Sequence record: SRR2962707_659
Direction: 5' to 3' (one strand)
DNA length: 35,423 nt
In this document: piece by piece, positions 2,858 through 34,839 of the stretch
Layout: every line of letters begins with the position of its first letter
Position numbering within the stretch: position 1 is the stretch's first letter
Notes under the pieces: model-generated
Seen by the model: the letters and a program-made list of their open reading frames with translations, nothing else
Told to the model about the DNA's origin: nothing
Databases searched by the model: none
Translations under genes and position numbers: made by a program

Positions 2858-3739
2858 ATGCTCGAACTGAAAGACGTGACCCGCCGATTTGGCGTGAACA
2901 CCGCAGTTGATGCTGTCACCTTGTCAATTCCCGAAGGGCAGATGGTCGGGGTGATCGGGCGTTCGGGAGCTGGCAAGTCAACTCTGCTGCGCATGATCAA
3001 CCGCCTGACGCCGACAAGCAGTGGCGAGATCCGGTTCAAGGGCAAGACCGTGTCGGGACTGCGCGGCAACGAGCTGCGCAACTGGCATCGCGATTGCGCA
3101 ATGATCTTTCAACAATTCAATCTGGTGCCGCGGCTAGATGTGCTGACCAATGTGCTGCTCGGCCGCCTCAATCACCGCTCCACGGTGCTCAACATTCTCA
3201 ACATCTTTACCGTCGAGGAGCGCGCCAGCGCGCTTGCTGCACTGGAGCGTCTCGGTATCGCGCAGACAGCGTTGCAGATGGCTGGCACCTTGTCTGGTGG
3301 CCAGCAGCAGCGCGTCGCCATTGCGCGGGCACTGATGCAGTCGCCATCGATGGTTTTGGCCGATGAGCCGATCGCCTCACTCGATCCCCTCAATGCGCAG
3401 ATCGTGATGGATGCGCTTCGCGATATCAATCAGCGTGAAGGCATCACCGTGGTCACCAATCTGCACACGCTTGATACAGCGCGTGCCTATTGCGAGCGGG
3501 TGATCGGCATGGCCGGCGGCAAGGTGGTGTTCGACGGCTCGCCTGACGAACTGACCACCGATGCGGTGCGGATGATCTACGGCGCGTCGGGTGACGGCAC
3601 CGAGATTTCCGAAAGCATTACCTCGACTTCGATTTCAGCCGAACGCCCCGTCGTTCCGGCGAAACCCAAATCCAACGGTCAGCTGCAACCTGCGCTCAGC
3701 GTCAAGCCTGCAGCCGCCGAGATCGCCTTGCCCGCGTAA
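2858..3739 (+). CDS. phnC: Phosphonate ABC transporter ATP-binding protein
   Basis: [56 protein letters not shown] 2858 after a GGGGA/GGA RBS-like sequence. Confidence 0.95.
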
Positions 3740-28235: not shown

Positions 28236-28259
28236 TTTCAGGCTCTGATTGAGACAACT

Positions 28260-28291
28260 CGGCCGCGGAGAGATCCGCGGCCGTTTTCGTT
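28260..28291 (+). terminator. Rho-independent terminator of the binding-protein gene
   Basis: CGGCCGCGGA-gaga-TCCGCGGCCG perfect 10-bp stem with GNRA loop, followed by TTTTCGTT. Confidence 0.88.
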
Positions 28292-28304
28292 GGTGGCCTC
28301 TGGT

Positions 28305-28754
28305 TCAGCTCCCGCTTGGAGTGGCGCGTTTGTCTGGCGAGGTTGCGGGAATGGGAAACACGAGATCGTAGGCCCAATTGAAGACGAAGGCGTAGACCAG
28401 GTAGAAGGCCGCAAACGAAATATCCATCGCGAAGGCTTCGAGCAGGCTTATGCCGAGGTACCAGGCGATGAACGGCAACAGCACCAGCAATAGTCCGGCT
28501 TCAAACAAGACGGCGTGGAACACACGCATGGCAATCGATTTTGTCACATGGCCGGTGAAGCGCAGCAGGGCATTGTCGAAGAGCAGATTGTAGAGATAGT
28601 TCCAGCCAGTGGCGATTGTCGCGCTGACCACGGCAACGATGCCGATCTCGTTGAGCGGTTGCGCAAAGAGCCAGGCGCCAAGCGGCGTGACGATAAACAG
28701 CGCGATGATCTCGAAACTCAACGCGTGGCGAAGTCTGTCTTTGGTGGTTCGCAC
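28305..28754 (-). CDS. PACE-family (AceI/BTP, chlorhexidine efflux-type) transporter
   Basis: Two BTP repeats: RLRHALSFE...WNYLYNLLFD and RVFHAVLFE...FNWAYD; GTG start with GAGGT RBS. Confidence 0.92.
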   Translation of the reverse strand: MRTTKDRLRHALSFEIIALFIVTPLGAWLFAQPLNEIGIVAVVSATIATGWNYLYNLLFDNALLRFTGHVTKSIAMRVFHAVLFEAGLLLVLLPFIAWYLGISLLEAFAMDISFAAFYLVYAFVFNWAYDLVFPIPATSPDKRATPSGS

Positions 28755-28772
28755 AGGACACCTCAACTCATT

Positions 28773-28817
28773 GCCGGGTCGTCCCGGCGGTGTTTCCCGG
28801 ATGGGGAGGTCGTCCTC
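28773..28817 (-). ncRNA. Guanidine-II (mini-ykkC) riboswitch candidate
   Basis: Minus strand: P1 GAGG-ACGA-CCTC (28817-28806), 17-nt linker, P2 GCCGGG-ACGA-CCCGGC (28788-28773), then AATGAGTTGAGGTGTCCT-GTG start. Two GC stems capped by ACGR tetraloops just upstream of an RBS define this class. Confidence 0.85.
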
Positions 28818-28829
28818 GCTTGCCGTTCC

Positions 28830-28860
28830 ATGTAGGCTCTTGCGCGGCCTGCGCAAGAGC
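28830..28860 (-). promoter_or_regulatory. Putative sigma70 promoter of the PACE gene overlapped by a perfect 10-bp inverted repeat
   Basis: Minus strand CTTGCG-N16-CTACAT (rhizobial consensus CTTGAC-N17-CTATAT), which would place the start just 5' of riboswitch P1; GCTCTTGCGC-N5-GCGCAAGAGC at 28836-28860. Confidence 0.55.
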
Positions 28861-29019
28861 ATTCGCTGTGTCAGATTGGCCCGGAGCGGGGCTTTGTTAG
28901 CCGAAGTGGACTTTAAATCAGCCCTTGGGTGAAAGGGTTTTCTGCCTCTTTTCCTGTCTGGAAAGTGCCGTAATCCTGATCTTATTCAATGTTTTGCGGC
29001 GTTTTCCGGTCAGTCTGAT

Positions 29020-30603
29020 TCAGTTCTGCAACGCGGTATCGGCCTGGCCGGCAAATGACCGCACTGTCTTGAGTGCGCCTTCCAGTTGGTCGCCTTTCTC
29101 ATCAGCCAATGCCGCTTCGCGCAGTAATTTGCACCAATGTGCGGCGTCATCGCGCCCGGCAAGCAAAGCCACACCATCCATGACCCGGTCAAACTTTGAC
29201 AGGCCACGGGTGTGGGTGTCGGAATAGCCCTTGACCAGACGCCGGTTGCGCAAGGCTTCGACGCCGAGCGCGTAGTCGATCTTGCGGTAGGCCATCGCCC
29301 GATCAAGCCAGTTTTCCATGTGCTCTTTCTCAATCGCATGGCGCAGAGTGCCACGGCGGTACTTGCGAAGCCCGCCGAGTATGTAGAGCTGGGCAAAGGG
29401 CAGCAGCCGGTCTGTGCGTAGCCTGCGGCCCTTGTTGACCACCCTGTCGATCAATCGCATTGATCTTTCACTCTTGGAAAGGCGGCGGCCAAGCCGGGAC
29501 GGCATCATGCCGACGACTTCCTCTGCGCGTGGATGCATGAACTCGGTGAGCTTCATCTGCGTGCCTTCGGCAGGCGAGATCTCATTGCGTACACGGGCGA
29601 AGCGGCTGCCGCGGGTCTTCAGATCAGCCACACGAAACACGTCGTCATAGGCCATGGCCTTGGCAATATATTTGGCGGCCTCCAGGGTCAGTTCGTGATC
29701 TCTGGCTGGATCGTCCTGCGCCAGCACGGTCTCGAGCCGGTCGAGATACTCAGCCCCGTAGTCAAGATCCTGGAAATCAACGACTGCCCGCAGGCCGGTC
29801 TGGGCCATGTCGCGCACAGAGGCGGGCAGGGCGGCGGCCCGCGCTTCGAGGCTCTGCCATTGATCAACGAGATGCTTCGGGCCTGCAGGTGTGTTGCTCG
29901 TTGCGGTCGTTTTCGCTCCGGAATGCGGACGCTCGACCCAGCCGCGGGCGGCGCCTTCATACCCGCCTGCAAAGGCGCGCAAGCTGGCCTCGACACCGCG
30001 ACCGGATGCCTTGATAGCCGCTTCGAAGCTTTCGCGCTCGAAGGGCAGGGCGCCGGAGCCTGCGAGTGCGCCAAACAGGCTTGCCGAGATCATCGATCCG
30101 GCGTCAACCGCCATCTTTTCCATGTCGAAGGCGATGAAACGCCGGGAAGCAATTTCAGCTGCTGCAATCACTTCTTCGGAGTCTGCAATGCCATCTCCTG
30201 GCACCATTTTTTCAGACACCGCAAGCGCCCGGTGCGATGAGGCAATCAGGGTGGTGCGGTCAGGCGTCACAAAACCGCGCATGATGGCGCGTCCGGCTTC
30301 CATCATTTCGGCCGCCACCAGGATGTCGACGTCACCCGCAGCCGGCATCAGCGAAAACACAGGCATGCGGTCCTGAGCCGGGGCCATCTCCATGTAGTAG
30401 ATGGTCGCGCCGGTGCGCTGGGCGACGCCGGCCACGGATGTCGCCTGGACCACATAGCCGTTGCGGTGGGCACAATCTTCCACCCAATTGGTCAGAACGC
30501 CGCCGCCCTGGCCGCCAACGGCCATGATGGCGATCTTGATGATCTGATCGAGTGCGGTGTCGGGCTGCTTTGATTGCAGTTCTGTCTGTATGCTGGTTGC
30601 CAT
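29020..30603 (-). CDS. iorB: Indolepyruvate oxidoreductase subunit beta family protein (long form with C-terminal extension)
   Basis: AVGGQGGGVL, TSVAGVAQRTGATIYY, VADLK, RLVKGYSDTH; starts at ATG 30603 just after the iorA stop. Confidence 0.88.
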   Translation of the reverse strand: MATSIQTELQSKQPDTALDQIIKIAIMAVGGQGGGVLTNWVEDCAHRNGYVVQATSVAGVAQRTGATIYYMEMAPAQDRMPVFSLMPAAGDVDILVAAEMMEAGRAIMRGFVTPDRTTLIASSHRALAVSEKMVPGDGIADSEEVIAAAEIASRRFIAFDMEKMAVDAGSMISASLFGALAGSGALPFERESFEAAIKASGRGVEASLRAFAGGYEGAARGWVERPHSGAKTTATSNTPAGPKHLVDQWQSLEARAAALPASVRDMAQTGLRAVVDFQDLDYGAEYLDRLETVLAQDDPARDHELTLEAAKYIAKAMAYDDVFRVADLKTRGSRFARVRNEISPAEGTQMKLTEFMHPRAEEVVGMMPSRLGRRLSKSERSMRLIDRVVNKGRRLRTDRLLPFAQLYILGGLRKYRRGTLRHAIEKEHMENWLDRAMAYRKIDYALGVEALRNRRLVKGYSDTHTRGLSKFDRVMDGVALLAGRDDAAHWCKLLREAALADEKGDQLEGALKTVRSFAGQADTALQN

Positions 30604-30607
30604 GCGA

Positions 30608-32755
30608 TCAGGTCCGGACGAATTCGATGCGGCCGCTTGAGCGGCGCTGTTGAAGCCAAGCAATGGTGTTGCTGCGGATGGTGCCCAGCTTGCGTTCCAG
30701 CCATCCCGGATTGTGGACAACCTCGGCACGGAAGAACGATGGGCAGAGCACGGCGGCGTCTGCGACTTCGCCGCAATTGCCGCATCCGACGCAGCTCTGG
30801 TCGATGCTGGCGACAGGATCGTCCCTGAGCGGATCATCCAGTTTCTTGAGGGAAAGCGAAGGGCAGCCCGACAGGCGAATGCAGGCGTGATCGCCGGTGC
30901 AGACGTCTTCATCGATACCGAAACGCGGCTTTTCAACCCGACGGCCTTCTTTGATCGCCTTGTTCATCAGCGGCTTTTCACGGCGCTGCTTGTTGAGCAT
31001 GCATTCCGATGACGCGACGATGACCTTTGGACCGACATGGTCGGTGGTCAGGGCCTCATTGAGGATCTCGCGCATCTTGGGAACGTCATAGGTCCTGTCG
31101 ATCTGCCGGACCCACTTGACGCCGATACCCTTGAGCGCGTTGGCAATCGGTTGGCCGGTGGTTTTGGTGGGGTTGTTGGCGCGCGAGGACAGGATATCCT
31201 GTCCGCCGGTTGCTGCCGAATAGAAATTGTCGACAATCACGATGACGCCGTCGGATTTGTTGTAGACGGCGTTTCCTATGGAGGTGGACAGGCCGTTGTG
31301 CCAGAAGCCGCCGTCACCGATAATCGAAATCGAACGTTTGTCTCCGCCGCCATCGAAGGCCGCGTTGGATGCAGGGCCGAGGCCGTAGCCCATCGTTGAT
31401 CCGCCAATCTCGAACGGCGGCAATGTAGCAAACAGATGGCAGCCGATGTCGGCGGCGATCTGGTGCTTGCCATGCTCCATCTCTGTCAGTTTGATTGCGG
31501 CAAAAATTGGTCGTTCCGGGCAGCCGGTGCAGAAGCCTGGCGGGCGCATCGGAACCGTCTTGGAGAGATCGGGAAGGGCGGGCTTCTCCTCGGAATTGGG
31601 CGCGCGCAGACGCGCCGGCAGCAATTCGGGTGCTGCTTTCTTCAGGAAGGCTTCAAGGCCGTCGAGCATCACCTGGCCGGTGTATTCGCCGGCCATCGGC
31701 AGCATGTCCTTGCCATGCAATTTGATGGTGCGTCCGCTCTTGTAAAGGGCTGCCCCGAGGGCCTGTTCAATAAACTCAGGCTGGCCTTCCTCCACCACAA
31801 GAACCGCCGATTTGCCTTCGCAAAACTCGAAGAACTCATCATTGACCAGCGGGTAGGTGACGTTGAGCACGTAGAGCGGGATTTCGGTATCGCCGTGAAT
31901 GTCGGCCAGGCCAAGACGTTGCAGGGCGCGGATCACGCCATTGTACATGCCGCCCTGCAGAACGATGCCGACCGGTGCCTCGCTGGGGCCGAAGAACTCG
32001 TTGAGCTTGTGCTCGACGATGTATTTCTGTGCCGCCGGCCAGCGATTGTTGATCTTGTCGTGTTCCTGCAGATAGGACATCGGCGGCAGCACCACGCGAG
32101 CGTAGTCGCTGCGCGGCGTGGCGAGAGCGTCCTTGACGGTAAATGGCGGGCGCTTGTTGTCCTTCGCCTGGAAACTGCCGGTGACATGGCAGGAACGGAT
32201 ACGCACCATCAGCATGACCGGGGTGTTGGTGGCTTCCGACAGCTCAAACCCCTGATGCACCGATTGAACAATCGACGGCAGGTTGGGGCGCGGGTCGAGC
32301 AGCCACATCTGCGATTTCATCGCGAAAGCATGGCTGCGCTCCTGCATGATCGAGGAGCCTTCGCCGTAATCCTCGCCGATGATCACCAGCGCACCGCCGG
32401 TAACGCCGGAAGAGGACAGGTTTGCCAGTGCATCGGAGGCGACGTTGACGCCGACCGGTCCCTTGAAGGTGACGGCCCCCCGGATCGGGTAATGCACGGA
32501 CGCGGCCAGCATGGCCGCGGCTGCGGCTTCAGACGCATTGGCTTCGTAGCGAACCCCGAGCTCGGTAAGGATTTCCTCGGCATCGGCCAGCACATCCATC
32601 AGATGGCTGATCGGCGCACCCTGATAGCCTCCGACATAGCCCACTCCGGCTTCGAGAAGTGCTTTGGTCAGCGCCAGAATGCCTTCACCGGAAAAGGTTT
32701 CGCCTTCCCCGATCTTTAGTTTCTGGACTTCCTTGGCAAATGAACGTTCAGCCAT
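30608..32755 (-). CDS. iorA: Indolepyruvate ferredoxin oxidoreductase subunit alpha
   Basis: GYQGAP, RPPGFCTGCPER, TPP motif GDGGFWHNG...DN, C-terminal Fe-S motifs CTGDHACIRLSGCP and CVGCGNC. Confidence 0.93.
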   Translation of the reverse strand: MAERSFAKEVQKLKIGEGETFSGEGILALTKALLEAGVGYVGGYQGAPISHLMDVLADAEEILTELGVRYEANASEAAAAAMLAASVHYPIRGAVTFKGPVGVNVASDALANLSSSGVTGGALVIIGEDYGEGSSIMQERSHAFAMKSQMWLLDPRPNLPSIVQSVHQGFELSEATNTPVMLMVRIRSCHVTGSFQAKDNKRPPFTVKDALATPRSDYARVVLPPMSYLQEHDKINNRWPAAQKYIVEHKLNEFFGPSEAPVGIVLQGGMYNGVIRALQRLGLADIHGDTEIPLYVLNVTYPLVNDEFFEFCEGKSAVLVVEEGQPEFIEQALGAALYKSGRTIKLHGKDMLPMAGEYTGQVMLDGLEAFLKKAAPELLPARLRAPNSEEKPALPDLSKTVPMRPPGFCTGCPERPIFAAIKLTEMEHGKHQIAADIGCHLFATLPPFEIGGSTMGYGLGPASNAAFDGGGDKRSISIIGDGGFWHNGLSTSIGNAVYNKSDGVIVIVDNFYSAATGGQDILSSRANNPTKTTGQPIANALKGIGVKWVRQIDRTYDVPKMREILNEALTTDHVGPKVIVASSECMLNKQRREKPLMNKAIKEGRRVEKPRFGIDEDVCTGDHACIRLSGCPSLSLKKLDDPLRDDPVASIDQSCVGCGNCGEVADAAVLCPSFFRAEVVHNPGWLERKLGTIRSNTIAWLQQRRSSGRIEFVRT

Positions 32756-32773
32756 GCTGTGTAATTCCCGTCA

Positions 32774-33265
32774 TTAGAAATCGTGCTTGCGGATGTTCTT
32801 GAGCATTTTCTGCAGCGTCGTGACGAAGGCCTGGCGCTCCTCGGCACGGATATCCTTGAACATCTGGGCGTAGCTCTGCGCCATTGATGGCCAGAGTTGA
32901 TCAAGGGCTGCCCGGCCTGTGTCGGTGATGCCGATCCGGGTCACCCGGCTGTCATTGGGGTCGGAATCACGCCGTACCATTCCATCCGATGCAAGCTGGT
33001 CGAGAGCGCGGCTCAGCGTGGACTGTTCGACAACGGCGTAGACCGCCAGCTCGCTGATCGGCAGGGAATCAATGACAGAGAGCACCGCGAGCGCACGCAT
33101 CTTGGGCGTCGTCAGCCCAAGGCCGGTCATCTCCTGCCTCAGATCGGCATTGTAGCGCCCCATGATCCGGTTCATCAGGTAAGGCGCAAAATTGGACAGG
33201 CCGATTTCGCCCAGCCGCTGCAACGGCTCCAATTTTTCTGTTTCGGGTTTCGTGGTTTCGTTCAT
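32774..33265 (-). CDS. MarR-family transcriptional regulator
   Basis: Winged HTH: LTTPKMRAL, ISELA...EQSTLSRALDQL...DSRVTRIGIT. Confidence 0.93.
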   Translation of the reverse strand: MNETTKPETEKLEPLQRLGEIGLSNFAPYLMNRIMGRYNADLRQEMTGLGLTTPKMRALAVLSVIDSLPISELAVYAVVEQSTLSRALDQLASDGMVRRDSDPNDSRVTRIGITDTGRAALDQLWPSMAQSYAQMFKDIRAEERQAFVTTLQKMLKNIRKHDF

Positions 33266-34839
33266 CCGCCCAACCTCTTGGCCAACAGGAAGCCTGATCC
33301 TCCGCCAAGTCCCGGACCGGGATGGGTAGAGGCGCCGATGTGATGCAGGTTCTCAATGGCGGTTGCATTGTTCTTGCTGTGGGAAAACGGGCGCCAGATG
33401 AAGAACTGGTCCACCGCACAGGACCCGCCATAAGGGTCGCCGCCGACGAGATTGATGTTCATGGTTTCCAGATCCACCGGTGAGTAGGCCTTGCGCGCCA
33501 AAACGCTTTCGCCAAAACCTTCGATATGGTGAGCGAGGATCGCCTCGATGCGGTCGGCGAACGCCTCGCGGGTGGCCTCGCTCCAGACGCCGCCGGTGTC
33601 GATTTCGCCCGCAGCATCGCCCTTGATGCTGCGCGGTGCGTCCGGGATCTGCAGCCATAGGATGGACTTGCCGTCCGGGCAGCGGGTGGGATCGAGACGA
33701 TGAGGCTGGCCGACACAAATGGTTGGCGTTACCGGCAACATGCCGCGCTCGGCCTCGTTGGATGACTTTGAAACGGAATTGATGCTGTCTGCCAGATGGA
33801 TGAGGGCGACGTCGTCCAGCCCTTCCGTCTTCCATTTGACCGGACCATCAAGCGCGTAGTGCAACTGAAAATTGCCGCGGCCGTGGCGGAATTCGCCCAG
33901 ACCGGAAGTGACCTGTTCGGGAAGCGTCGCAGTGTCTTCGCGCAGCAGGCGATTGTAGAGCTGCCCGGGCGCTACCGAGCATATCACGTGGGAGGCCGAT
34001 ATCTCGCTGCCGTCGGCGAGCCTGACACCGGCTGCCTTGCCATTGCGCAGCAGGATTCGGTCGACGTCGGCATCGGCGCGCAGCTCGCCGCCATTGGCCT
34101 CGATCAGGCACTTGAAAGCAATGACGGCCTGGCTGGCGCCGCCCTTGATCACCGGTGCGCCGGCAGCCTCCAAGGCGAAGGCAATGACCTTGCCCATCTG
34201 GCTGCCATAGGCGGATTCGGTGGTCAGGCCGGTGTGCAATGCCCATGGTGCCCAGAGAGCCTGAACCAATTCTGACGTGTAGGTGCTTTCAAGCCAGGCG
34301 CGGGTGGGGCGCAGGGCCTCGCCCGTCCATGCGGCCAGACCACGCAGGCCGCGTTTCCAGGCCTGACTGATCATCAGCTTTGCCGTGGGCCAGCTCCACA
34401 ACTCGCCGCCGAGCAGTGCAAACAGGAAAGGTGCGTCGGCTTCGATCGCGCCGACATCGGCGCGGTGGCGGTCGCCTTCGCCAGCTGCGAGCATGTTGAA
34501 TGTCTTGATGTTGGAGGCCCGGTCGGTGGTCAAAACCAGTGACGAGCCGTCAGGGCGCAACACCGCCGTAGGGTGCGGCGTGTGGCAGAATTCCAGCCCA
34601 TGCCGCGCCAGATCAGATCCGAGCGCGGCATGGGCGGGGGAAGTCAGGAACAGTACAAAGGTGGCTGCCATCACGTCATGGTGGAAACCGGGCAGAGTAA
34701 TTTCCTCGGTACGCATGCAGCCGCCGAAGCGGCTCTCACGCTCGAGAACCAGCACACGCTTGCCTTTTGAGGAAAGCATGGCCGCGGCAACGAGCGAATT
34801 GATCCCGCTGCCCACGATGATGTGGTCAAAATCTGCCAT
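33262..34839 (-). CDS. NAD(P)/FAD-dependent oxidoreductase, phytoene dehydrogenase-like (COG1233)
   Basis: IVGSGINSLVAA, LPGFHHD, NLVGGDPYGG, IGASTHPGPGLGGGSG. Confidence 0.9.
   Translation of the reverse strand: MADFDHIIVGSGINSLVAAAMLSSKGKRVLVLERESRFGGCMRTEEITLPGFHHDVMAATFVLFLTSPAHAALGSDLARHGLEFCHTPHPTAVLRPDGSSLVLTTDRASNIKTFNMLAAGEGDRHRADVGAIEADAPFLFALLGGELWSWPTAKLMISQAWKRGLRGLAAWTGEALRPTRAWLESTYTSELVQALWAPWALHTGLTTESAYGSQMGKVIAFALEAAGAPVIKGGASQAVIAFKCLIEANGGELRADADVDRILLRNGKAAGVRLADGSEISASHVICSVAPGQLYNRLLREDTATLPEQVTSGLGEFRHGRGNFQLHYALDGPVKWKTEGLDDVALIHLADSINSVSKSSNEAERGMLPVTPTICVGQPHRLDPTRCPDGKSILWLQIPDAPRSIKGDAAGEIDTGGVWSEATREAFADRIEAILAHHIEGFGESVLARKAYSPVDLETMNINLVGGDPYGGSCAVDQFFIWRPFSHSKNNATAIENLHHIGASTHPGPGLGGGSGFLLAKRLGG

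Follow-up and report, generated by a model that had tools for sequence, protein, structure and literature searches.

A guanidine-II riboswitch in the leader of a PACE-family transporter gene: a candidate exporter of guanidinium outside the SMR family

Why would the gene of a PACE-family efflux pump carry an RNA sensor for guanidine in its leader? The question is raised by a locus in a stretch of 35,423 nucleotides (nt) from sequence record SRR2962707_659 (hereafter the window, i.e., this whole stretch, whose positions serve as coordinates), where leader, aptamer and PACE gene all lie on the minus strand. It was resistance to chlorhexidine that led to the PACE family, for which short diamines are the only physiological substrates so far proposed. 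Riboswitches of the guanidine-II class have been described as ON switches of translation, placed for the most part before genes of guanidine exporters (PMC12186494). The initial annotation of the locus, made from the letters alone, had interpreted two ACGA-capped hairpins in front of the PACE gene as such a riboswitch and had proposed a covariance search and a survey of orthologous leaders as checks. From the aptamer match, the conservation and covariation of the hairpins, their restriction to one clade and the absence of other targets, we consider it probable, with some reserve, that a translational ON switch drives here a PACE exporter of guanidinium or a small guanidino-compound, a function that is proposed from comparative genomics.

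The Rfam covariance model of the guanidine-II aptamer (RF01068, mini-ykkC) matches the leader end to end (model positions 1-48 of 48; Table 1) with 40.4 bits against a gathering threshold of 32 and an E-value of 7.3e-5 over both strands of the 35-kb window. Hairpins P1 and P2 both carry an ACGA tetraloop closed by GG...CC pairs, as guanidine-II members do; the outer pair of P1 (G28819-C28804) flanks a C.C mismatch, and exactly 18 nt separate the end of P2 from the GTG start codon (28754-28752). The initial annotation had given the two hairpins and the 18-nt gap correctly to the base, and the covariance model now places them in the class that it had named. The position in the 5' leader beside the ribosome binding site is also that of the class, the transcription start being only predicted. 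Judged from its sequence, the element is a genuine guanidine-II riboswitch, which would make up nearly the whole 5' leader of a single-gene PACE mRNA.

In contigs representing one genome per species 262 relatives were found, of which the best 80 were analyzed; the closest among these belongs to a Hoeflea metagenome-assembled genome (MAG; 93% identity). Twin GG-ACGR-CC hairpins occur at most 160 nt 5' of the PACE start in 70 of the 80 orthologue loci, and the tandem pattern is found once per locus, always on the coding strand and just 5' of the PACE gene. The RF01068 model reached or exceeded the gathering threshold at the leader in 33 of the 40 orthologue loci scanned (15 of 20 and 18 of 20), whereas none of 20 PACE loci without hairpins matched any Rfam family at that threshold (Fisher p 2e-10, which is not a true probability since the sequences are related).

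Conservation was quantified on the 69 distinct leaders, in which the two loop-closing pairs of each hairpin are fixed by the selection motif. All 69 form the four core pairs of P1: pairs 1, 2 and 4 are invariant G-C (the first two motif-fixed), pair 3 is A-U in 67 leaders, G-U in one and G-C in one, and 61 leaders add an outer G-C pair. Compensatory variants of P1 are GGGG/CCCC (L077) and GAAG/CUUC (L136). In the P2 core CGGG/CCCG, pairs 1-3 are invariant (pairs 1-2 again motif-fixed) and pair 4 is C-G in 68 leaders. Pair 5 of P2 covaries: it is C-G in 24 leaders, U-A in 23, U-G in nine and G-C in six, and is paired in 62. The inner pairs never vary and therefore hold no information on covariation either way. 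P1 loops are ACGA in 61 and ACGG in eight leaders, P2 loops ACGA in 55 and ACGG in 14. The spacing is equally constrained, with 21-29 nt between the cores in 68 leaders and 19-26 nt between the end of the second core and the start codon in 66. A feature outside the Rfam consensus, which treats the linker as unstructured, is a linker hairpin of at least 3 bp that starts within the first five linker nucleotides in 63 of the 69 leaders and has a variable fourth pair (G-C, A-U, C-G). In the occurrence of the hairpins, the model matches and the covariation of P2 pair 5, the survey of leaders thus came out in favor of the riboswitch that the initial annotation had proposed.

Some leaders depart from this pattern. 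Ten loci did not pass the motif test: in five the element is altered or decayed, and the other five, from four Halomonadaceae and Chelativorans, lack it entirely. The altered aptamers comprise that of L011 (Hoeflea, 2870-3000), with an AUGA loop on P2 and a decayed P1, those of two Cypionkella leaders (L060, L070), with an ACGC loop on P2 and an intact P1, and the degenerate hairpins of L045 and L073; they may be decaying switches or specificity variants. In a leader of a Thalassospira MAG (L043, 2887-3003) the linker measures 63 nt, against 17-25 nt in the other 68 leaders, and folds into a stable hairpin of its own between P1 and P2 (-18.1 kcal/mol). In L014 and L058 the distance from the aptamer to the start codon is 51-60 nt, where about 22 nt is usual, and additional sequence separates P2 from the Shine-Dalgarno (SD) sequence.

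The distribution of the element over the PACE family was examined in a tree of 143 rows, consisting of the window, the 80 loci and every PACE gene from the sampled genomes; left out were L091 (the gene of L010 again), L098 (a duplicate that differs in its start), L155 (whose gene is broken) and any identical proteins. All 79 riboswitch-linked rows (74 intact, five variant) fall in one subtree of 89 rows with an SH-like approximate likelihood ratio test (SH-aLRT) support of 91, and hairpins occur in none of the 54 rows outside it. On this tree the riboswitch label requires five changes, whereas shuffled labels require 47 on average. With its 148 columns the tree is short, leaves many forks unresolved and is compatible with a single origin of the pairing, no more. 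Within the genome sample the hairpins are confined to genes at least 58% identical to the window protein. The carriers belong to at least 20 named genera in ten families and five orders, spanning Alphaproteobacteria and Betaproteobacteria (Nitrosomonas). The Pfam family PF05232 as such is rarer in the Alphaproteobacteria, with six of 301 sampled genomes against 54 of 401 across the phylum. One small alphaproteobacterial genome has two PACE paralogues approximately 1.2 kb apart (L092, G032:C1:586546-589731), both within the riboswitch clade and both without a riboswitch.

The genes around the pump tell of a change in regulation. Flanking genes differ between genera and the downstream gene is usually convergent, so that the pump forms a single-gene unit. 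LysR genes have been reported to flank PACE genes (PMC9045395). The two longest open reading frames (ORFs) within 1.5 kb 5' of each gene were scanned against Pfam, and the LysR helix-turn-helix domain was found in only six of 138 upstream ORFs from 69 riboswitch loci, against 46 of 108 from 63 loci (64 genes) without riboswitch, i.e., at most 9% versus at most 72% (Fisher p 2e-14, for loci that are not phylogenetically independent). LysR has thus mostly been lost in the riboswitch clade, which suggests that the RNA switch took the place of the LysR activator that is typical of PACE genes. Among the 108 ORFs upstream of PACE genes without riboswitch, a single one, just 5' of its PACE gene, encodes a pyruvoyl-dependent arginine decarboxylase (PF01862), which makes agmatine.

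Whether the carriers use this switch for other genes was assessed in ten genomes. Four of five Hoeflea genomes have one RF01068 match each and the fifth, whose P2 contains a mismatch, has none; genomes of Rhizobium, Sulfitobacter, Microvirga, Thalassospira and Bauldia have one match each, four over the cut-off and that of Microvirga (30.1 bits) under it. By coordinates all matches are the PACE leader, which is the sole match in nine of the ten genomes among the 150 first-look RNA candidates scored per genome out of 443-1936. The five Hoeflea genomes gave no match to a guanidine-I aptamer. Each of these genomes contains one SMR gene, and the loci of about 3 kb around these genes gave no Rfam match at E <= 0.1. 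The SMR protein of Hoeflea G004 (L088:1450-2563) is Qac/EmrE-like, with 136 bits for Qac/EmrE models and 57 bits for SugE; directly upstream, an ORF that overlaps its gene on the same (minus) strand is TetR-like by eye. Over the ten genomes the SugE model exceeded its cut-off once (G684), came near it once (G682; 116.6 bits versus 126) and gave at most 60 bits or no match in the other eight. With the leader as sole RF01068 target and few SugE matches, the PACE gene appears to be the only visible guanidine-sensing output in most of these ten carriers, which would have no Gdx-type pump.

These data also bear on the possibility that the hairpins are no ligand sensor at all, being a chance GC-rich pair, a dispersed repeat of the repetitive extragenic palindromic type resembling the Rfam model, or an element that binds a protein or acts as a terminator. 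The model has only 48 positions, and a GC-rich genome will yield the word GGACGRCC by chance; in the window it is seen five times against 3.5 expected, i.e., the word alone is not enriched. Such an origin fits poorly, however, with a fixed position and strand in front of one gene family in 70 of 80 loci from two classes, with covariation, with one copy per genome, among the candidates scored, in nine of ten genomes and with the lack of matches in the 20 control PACE loci, while no T-run follows either hairpin in the window sequence. A dispersed repeat was rejected on the single genome matches, the unenriched word and the tandem pattern that occurs once per locus. This whole group of explanations is already largely refuted, and we regard it as very improbable.

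The protein encoded behind the leader is a PACE member by Pfam and NCBIfam. Pfam finds two stretches of BTP (PF05232; E 3.4e-47, 158.7 bits) and the NCBIfam model PACE_transport (NF033664) scores 139.1 bits against a cut-off of 80, while the equivalogs AceI (NF033663; 94.1 versus 180 bits) and PCE (NF033665; 135.3 versus 165 bits) stay below theirs, which places it in the family outside both named subtypes. Its GTG start coincides with the conserved MR(T/S)TxDRIRHA N-terminus in the alignment of the 80 orthologues. The upstream ATG at 28862, which would give an ORF of 185 amino acids (aa), was ruled out as start because the orthologues begin at the MR(T/S)T position behind their own SD. An AlphaFold2 model built on an 81-sequence alignment has four long helices (4-30, 34-67, 74-100 and 104-132) with a predicted local distance difference test score of 82.3. 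The helix-1 glutamate E15 is invariant in all 143 aligned PACE proteins, and the residues that are near-invariant in this set (R7, E15, W51-N52, N56, F59, R77, H80, F84-E85, G87, P94, N126 and D130) are kept. By position offsets, the conserved residues E15, D60, H80, E85 and D111 are probably the counterparts of E38, D83, H101, E106 and D132 of PA2880, which have been functionally probed (PMC9045395). Ten residues are conserved in at least 90% of the riboswitch-linked members and in no more than 15% of the remaining PACE proteins: R9, S13, G26, F30, T49, L57, G68, K72, Y99 and Y118. Several of them bring hydroxyls to positions held by Leu, Met, Trp or Phe in other clades, which may make the pocket more polar, to suit a small hydrophilic cation.

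Compared with the characterized pumps AceI of Acinetobacter baumannii and PA2880 of Pseudomonas aeruginosa, the protein is alike in its length of about 150 aa, two BTP repeats, four helices and the glutamate of the first transmembrane helix (E15). It differs in belonging to a separate clade, in having an RNA switch where those have a divergent LysR gene, and in an implied cargo that is guanidinium-like instead of chlorhexidine or diamines. With Gdx of the SMR family it would share its proposed function as well as the build of a small four-helix pump with a membrane glutamate in helix 1 and induction through a guanidine riboswitch. No sequence relationship to Gdx is detected, only BTP/PACE models matching in Pfam and NCBIfam; the protein has no match to PF00893 or an SMR model of NCBIfam at E <= 0.01. 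A Foldseek search of the PDB with the model gave no match at E <= 0.001 (best E 3.1) and no SMR chain among its 47 weak rows, and no PDB sequence scored better than E 0.35. With no SMR match by sequence or structure, the pump falls outside the SMR family in all tests applied, and may work like Gdx all the same. The strongly positive N-terminus and 2-3 loop suggest one fixed topology, unlike the dual-topology dimers of SMR.

The arrangement as a whole resembles that of guanidine-II riboswitches in front of sugE/gdx genes of the SMR family (e.g., Escherichia coli sugE): two ACGR-loop hairpins with G-C closing pairs stand directly 5' of the ribosome binding site, the gene is that of a small cation exporter, and translational ON logic is expected. 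The regulated gene is here PACE/BTP instead, Pfam finding only PF05232 and no SMR domain. The leader itself differs from the Rfam guanidine-II consensus in the conserved CCC-N4-7-GGG linker mini-hairpin (63 of 69 leaders) and in a nearly invariant P1 (GAGG/CCUC, then a C-tract) that is anti-SD-like. A non-SMR family has been implicated in guanidine export solely via riboswitch association before: MATE (MepA-like) and PnuC-like transporters behind guanidine-IV riboswitches are candidate new exporter families (Lenkeit et al., 2020, PMC7736828). There the riboswitch is guanidine-IV and acts on transcription, whereas here it is guanidine-II, which acts on translation, and the transporter family is another.

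How the hairpins could govern translation was considered by folding the window leader plus 18 nt of coding sequence. In the unconstrained minimum free energy (MFE) structure (-35.3 kcal/mol) P1 is opened and its ACCUC pairs with the SD (GAGGU), while GCGAGGAC pairs with GUCCU.GUGC, start codon included; with P1 and P2 forced the value is -27.7 kcal/mol. The alternative fold sequestering the ribosome binding site, which the initial annotation had drawn from base complementarity, is thus real in silico. Over the 69 leaders, with 690 SD-window positions in all, the main partners of the SD are the linker C-tract at 208 positions, the P1 3' arm at 79 and P2 at 73, and 222 positions are unpaired. 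In most leaders CCUC is followed by CCCC, a near-perfect anti-SD for their own GGGG(A) ribosome sites, and the C-tract is likely an anti-SD element in most orthologues. In the ligand-free state the CCUC of the P1 3' arm, aided by the adjacent C-tract or linker, would hold the SD, and in the window the 5' arm would also pair with the start codon, which would block translation. Guanidinium bound in both ACGA loops would lock P1 and P2 into a kissing loop-loop dimer. The lock would pull CCUC off the SD and force the linker to span the rod-like dimer, to stretch or to refold into the CCC-GGG mini-hairpin, by which the SD would be freed. The ON polarity and the translational mode are adopted from descriptions of the class (PMC12186494) and would apply here by analogy. 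The induced pump, by analogy with AceI and PA2880, for which proton-coupled efflux as a dimer has been reported (PMC9045395), would be a proton-coupled PACE dimer exporting guanidinium, and possibly very small alkyl-guanidines, from the cytoplasm. It would then fill in these genomes the role that riboswitch-controlled Gdx pumps have elsewhere.

Several observations weigh against guanidinium export through such a switch, or at least temper it. Known PACE substrates are chlorhexidine, which is much larger, or diamines (PMC9045395), not guanidinium. The best 80 of 262 relatives are not a random sample, and five rows with altered loops and ten without a riboswitch stand within the clade. The scoring of only 150 candidates per genome weakens the finding of an only match, which is therefore not exhaustive, and two of the ten genomes do carry a SugE-like SMR gene. 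The folding results are also ambiguous: in the window, ACACC remains paired with part of the SD region when P1 and P2 are forced, and P1 is already present in the MFE structure of 34 of the 69 leaders, P2 in that of 47. When both hairpins are forced in L027 and L035, the C-tract still holds the SD, and a tertiary constraint is therefore essential to the model. Secondary-structure energetics alone leave the switching unexplained in many orthologues.

The serious alternative concerns the cargo. The riboswitch may be genuine and respond to a substituted guanidine, such as methylguanidine, agmatine, arcaine or audouine, which the pump would then export. The guanidine-II pocket is open at its side and has been crystallized with methylguanidine, aminoguanidine and agmatine (PMC5486947), and its binding of the C4/C5 diguanidines arcaine and audouine is about 10-fold stronger than that of guanidine (PMC6426286). 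Short-chain diamines and the bis-biguanide chlorhexidine are both reported as substrates of PACE pumps (PMC9045395), and arcaine and audouine are guanidinylated putrescine and cadaverine, i.e., derivatives of diamines that have been proposed as PACE cargo. In addition, the leaders form a subclass with a conserved extra linker hairpin that is absent from the Rfam consensus. However, the loops and their closing pairs have the GG-ACGR-CC form that is canonical for members responding to guanidine, the sequence gives no sign of altered specificity, and the surroundings contain no conserved gene for the synthesis or use of such compounds. As the loops hint at no changed specificity, we rate this alternative as unlikely, be it the strongest competitor. 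A bolder version holds that the PACE clade is a dedicated exporter of guanidino-amines and diguanidines (agmatine, arcaine, audouine), that the twin-site, three-hairpin riboswitch senses these bivalently, and that chlorhexidine, a bis-biguanide with a C6 chain, mimics the ancestral substrate class, in parallel to the Gdx-to-Qac story of the SMR family; we put it forward as a speculation with a small chance of being right.

Alternatively, the riboswitch may be genuine while the PACE protein does not move its ligand, acting instead as a general cation or polyamine pump or in some other membrane function within a guanidine stress response. PACE pumps are indeed multi-substrate (PMC9045395). Yet the transporters behind guanidine riboswitches that have been tested are selective for guanidine (PMC12186494), in nine of ten genomes the switch has no target but this pump among the candidates scored, and the pump forms a clade of its own with the ten clade-specific residues listed above. 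A pump indifferent to the ligand therefore seems to us quite improbable, and export of guanidinium or a small guanidino-compound remains the reading that we prefer.

Riboswitch class and pump family are both known; what is new is their pairing, which implies a new substrate class for part of the PACE family. Full-text literature searches, whose reach did not extend to supplementary tables, retrieved no paper linking PACE, AceI, BTP or chlorhexidine efflux to a guanidine riboswitch. Co-mentions in PMC10149990, PMC12186494, PMC12335538 and PMC9287405 are reference-list entries or unrelated uses of "pace", and in the available portion of a 2025 review of guanidine biology (PMC12186494) the word is an author name only. 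The main text of Lenkeit et al. (2020, PMC7736828) does not contain PACE, AceI or chlorhexidine, its Table S4 not being covered, and "riboswitch" is absent from the available portion of the study of Zhao (2022) on PACE phylogeny (PMC9045395). The pairing may well sit unremarked in supplementary gene lists, notably the said Table S4. A riboswitch points directly, and independently of any protein, to the molecule that a cell expels, and the whole PACE clade therefore gains a specific and cheaply testable substrate hypothesis. If this hypothesis is correct, PACE would join SMR (Gdx) as a family of small pumps exporting guanidinium, MATE and PnuC being so far only predicted exporters. There would then be a chemical rationale for the acceptance of a bis-biguanide biocide by PACE pumps, and bacteria without Gdx would still run a riboswitch-driven detoxification of guanidine. 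The leader subclass with its conserved third hairpin may also shed light on the coupling between the minimal guanidine-II aptamer and the ribosome binding site.

Table 1. Features of the PACE locus in window coordinates.
Feature	Position	Strand	Basis or remark
PACE-family transporter gene, 149 aa, GTG start, TGA stop	28305..28754	-	Pfam, NCBIfam
Guanidine-II aptamer	28774..28821	-	RF01068, 40.4 bits
P1 hairpin, core GAGG-ACGA-CCUC (28817-28806)	28804..28819	-	Sequence
Linker mini-hairpin CCC-AUCC-GGG	28796..28805	-	Hairpin in 63 of 69 leaders
P2 hairpin GCCGGG-ACGA-CCCGGC	28773..28788	-	Sequence
Shine-Dalgarno GAGG, 6 nt 5' of start codon	28761..28764	-	Sequence
Predicted -10 box CTACAT, 16-nt spacer	28830..28835	-	TACAT invariant in the same six leaders as the -35 box
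Predicted -35 box CTTGCG	28852..28857	-	CTTGC invariant in six Hoeflea-group leaders
Perfect 10-bp palindrome GCTCTTGCGC-N5-GCGCAAGAGC	28836..28860	-	Sequence
GC-rich palindromic terminator-like hairpin	28260..28283		10-bp stem, T-run on + strand

The putative promoter of the PACE gene was located by a phylogenetic footprint: in six leaders of the Hoeflea group CTTGC and TACAT stand 16 nt apart amid varying flanks (Table 1). The -35 candidate resembles the alphaproteobacterial consensus CTTGAC. A strict sigma-70 scan called no promoter in the leader. A search for RNA data sets containing positions 28250-29050 listed none, and the closest DNA data sets share at most 0.24 of the words of this region. 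The boxes predict a transcription start near 28826-28821, a few nucleotides 5' of P1, and the aptamer would therefore form the 5' end of the mRNA. The palindrome overlaps the predicted -35 box and the spacer, and could be an operator through which a protein exerts additional control; relatives conserve no more than its outer parts, and L001 retains it whereas L003 and L005 do not.

The neighbors of the PACE gene are a convergent SBP_bac_5 gene, from which it is separated by the terminator-like hairpin, and an IorB-like POR/DUF6537 gene, which bears out the remark in the initial annotation that no regulator gene is adjacent. The latter gene belongs to a same-strand string 5' of PACE (29020-34839, minus strand), which further encodes an amine-oxidase-like flavoprotein, a MarR protein and a thiamine pyrophosphate enzyme, and which resembles, by its gene content, an indolepyruvate-oxidoreductase-type operon with its own regulator. 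DUF6537 occurs in eight of the 138 ORFs upstream of the 69 riboswitch loci. The sole other Rfam match in the window is an unrelated cobalamin riboswitch (RF00174) at 2676-2496 on the minus strand, with 106.9 bits.

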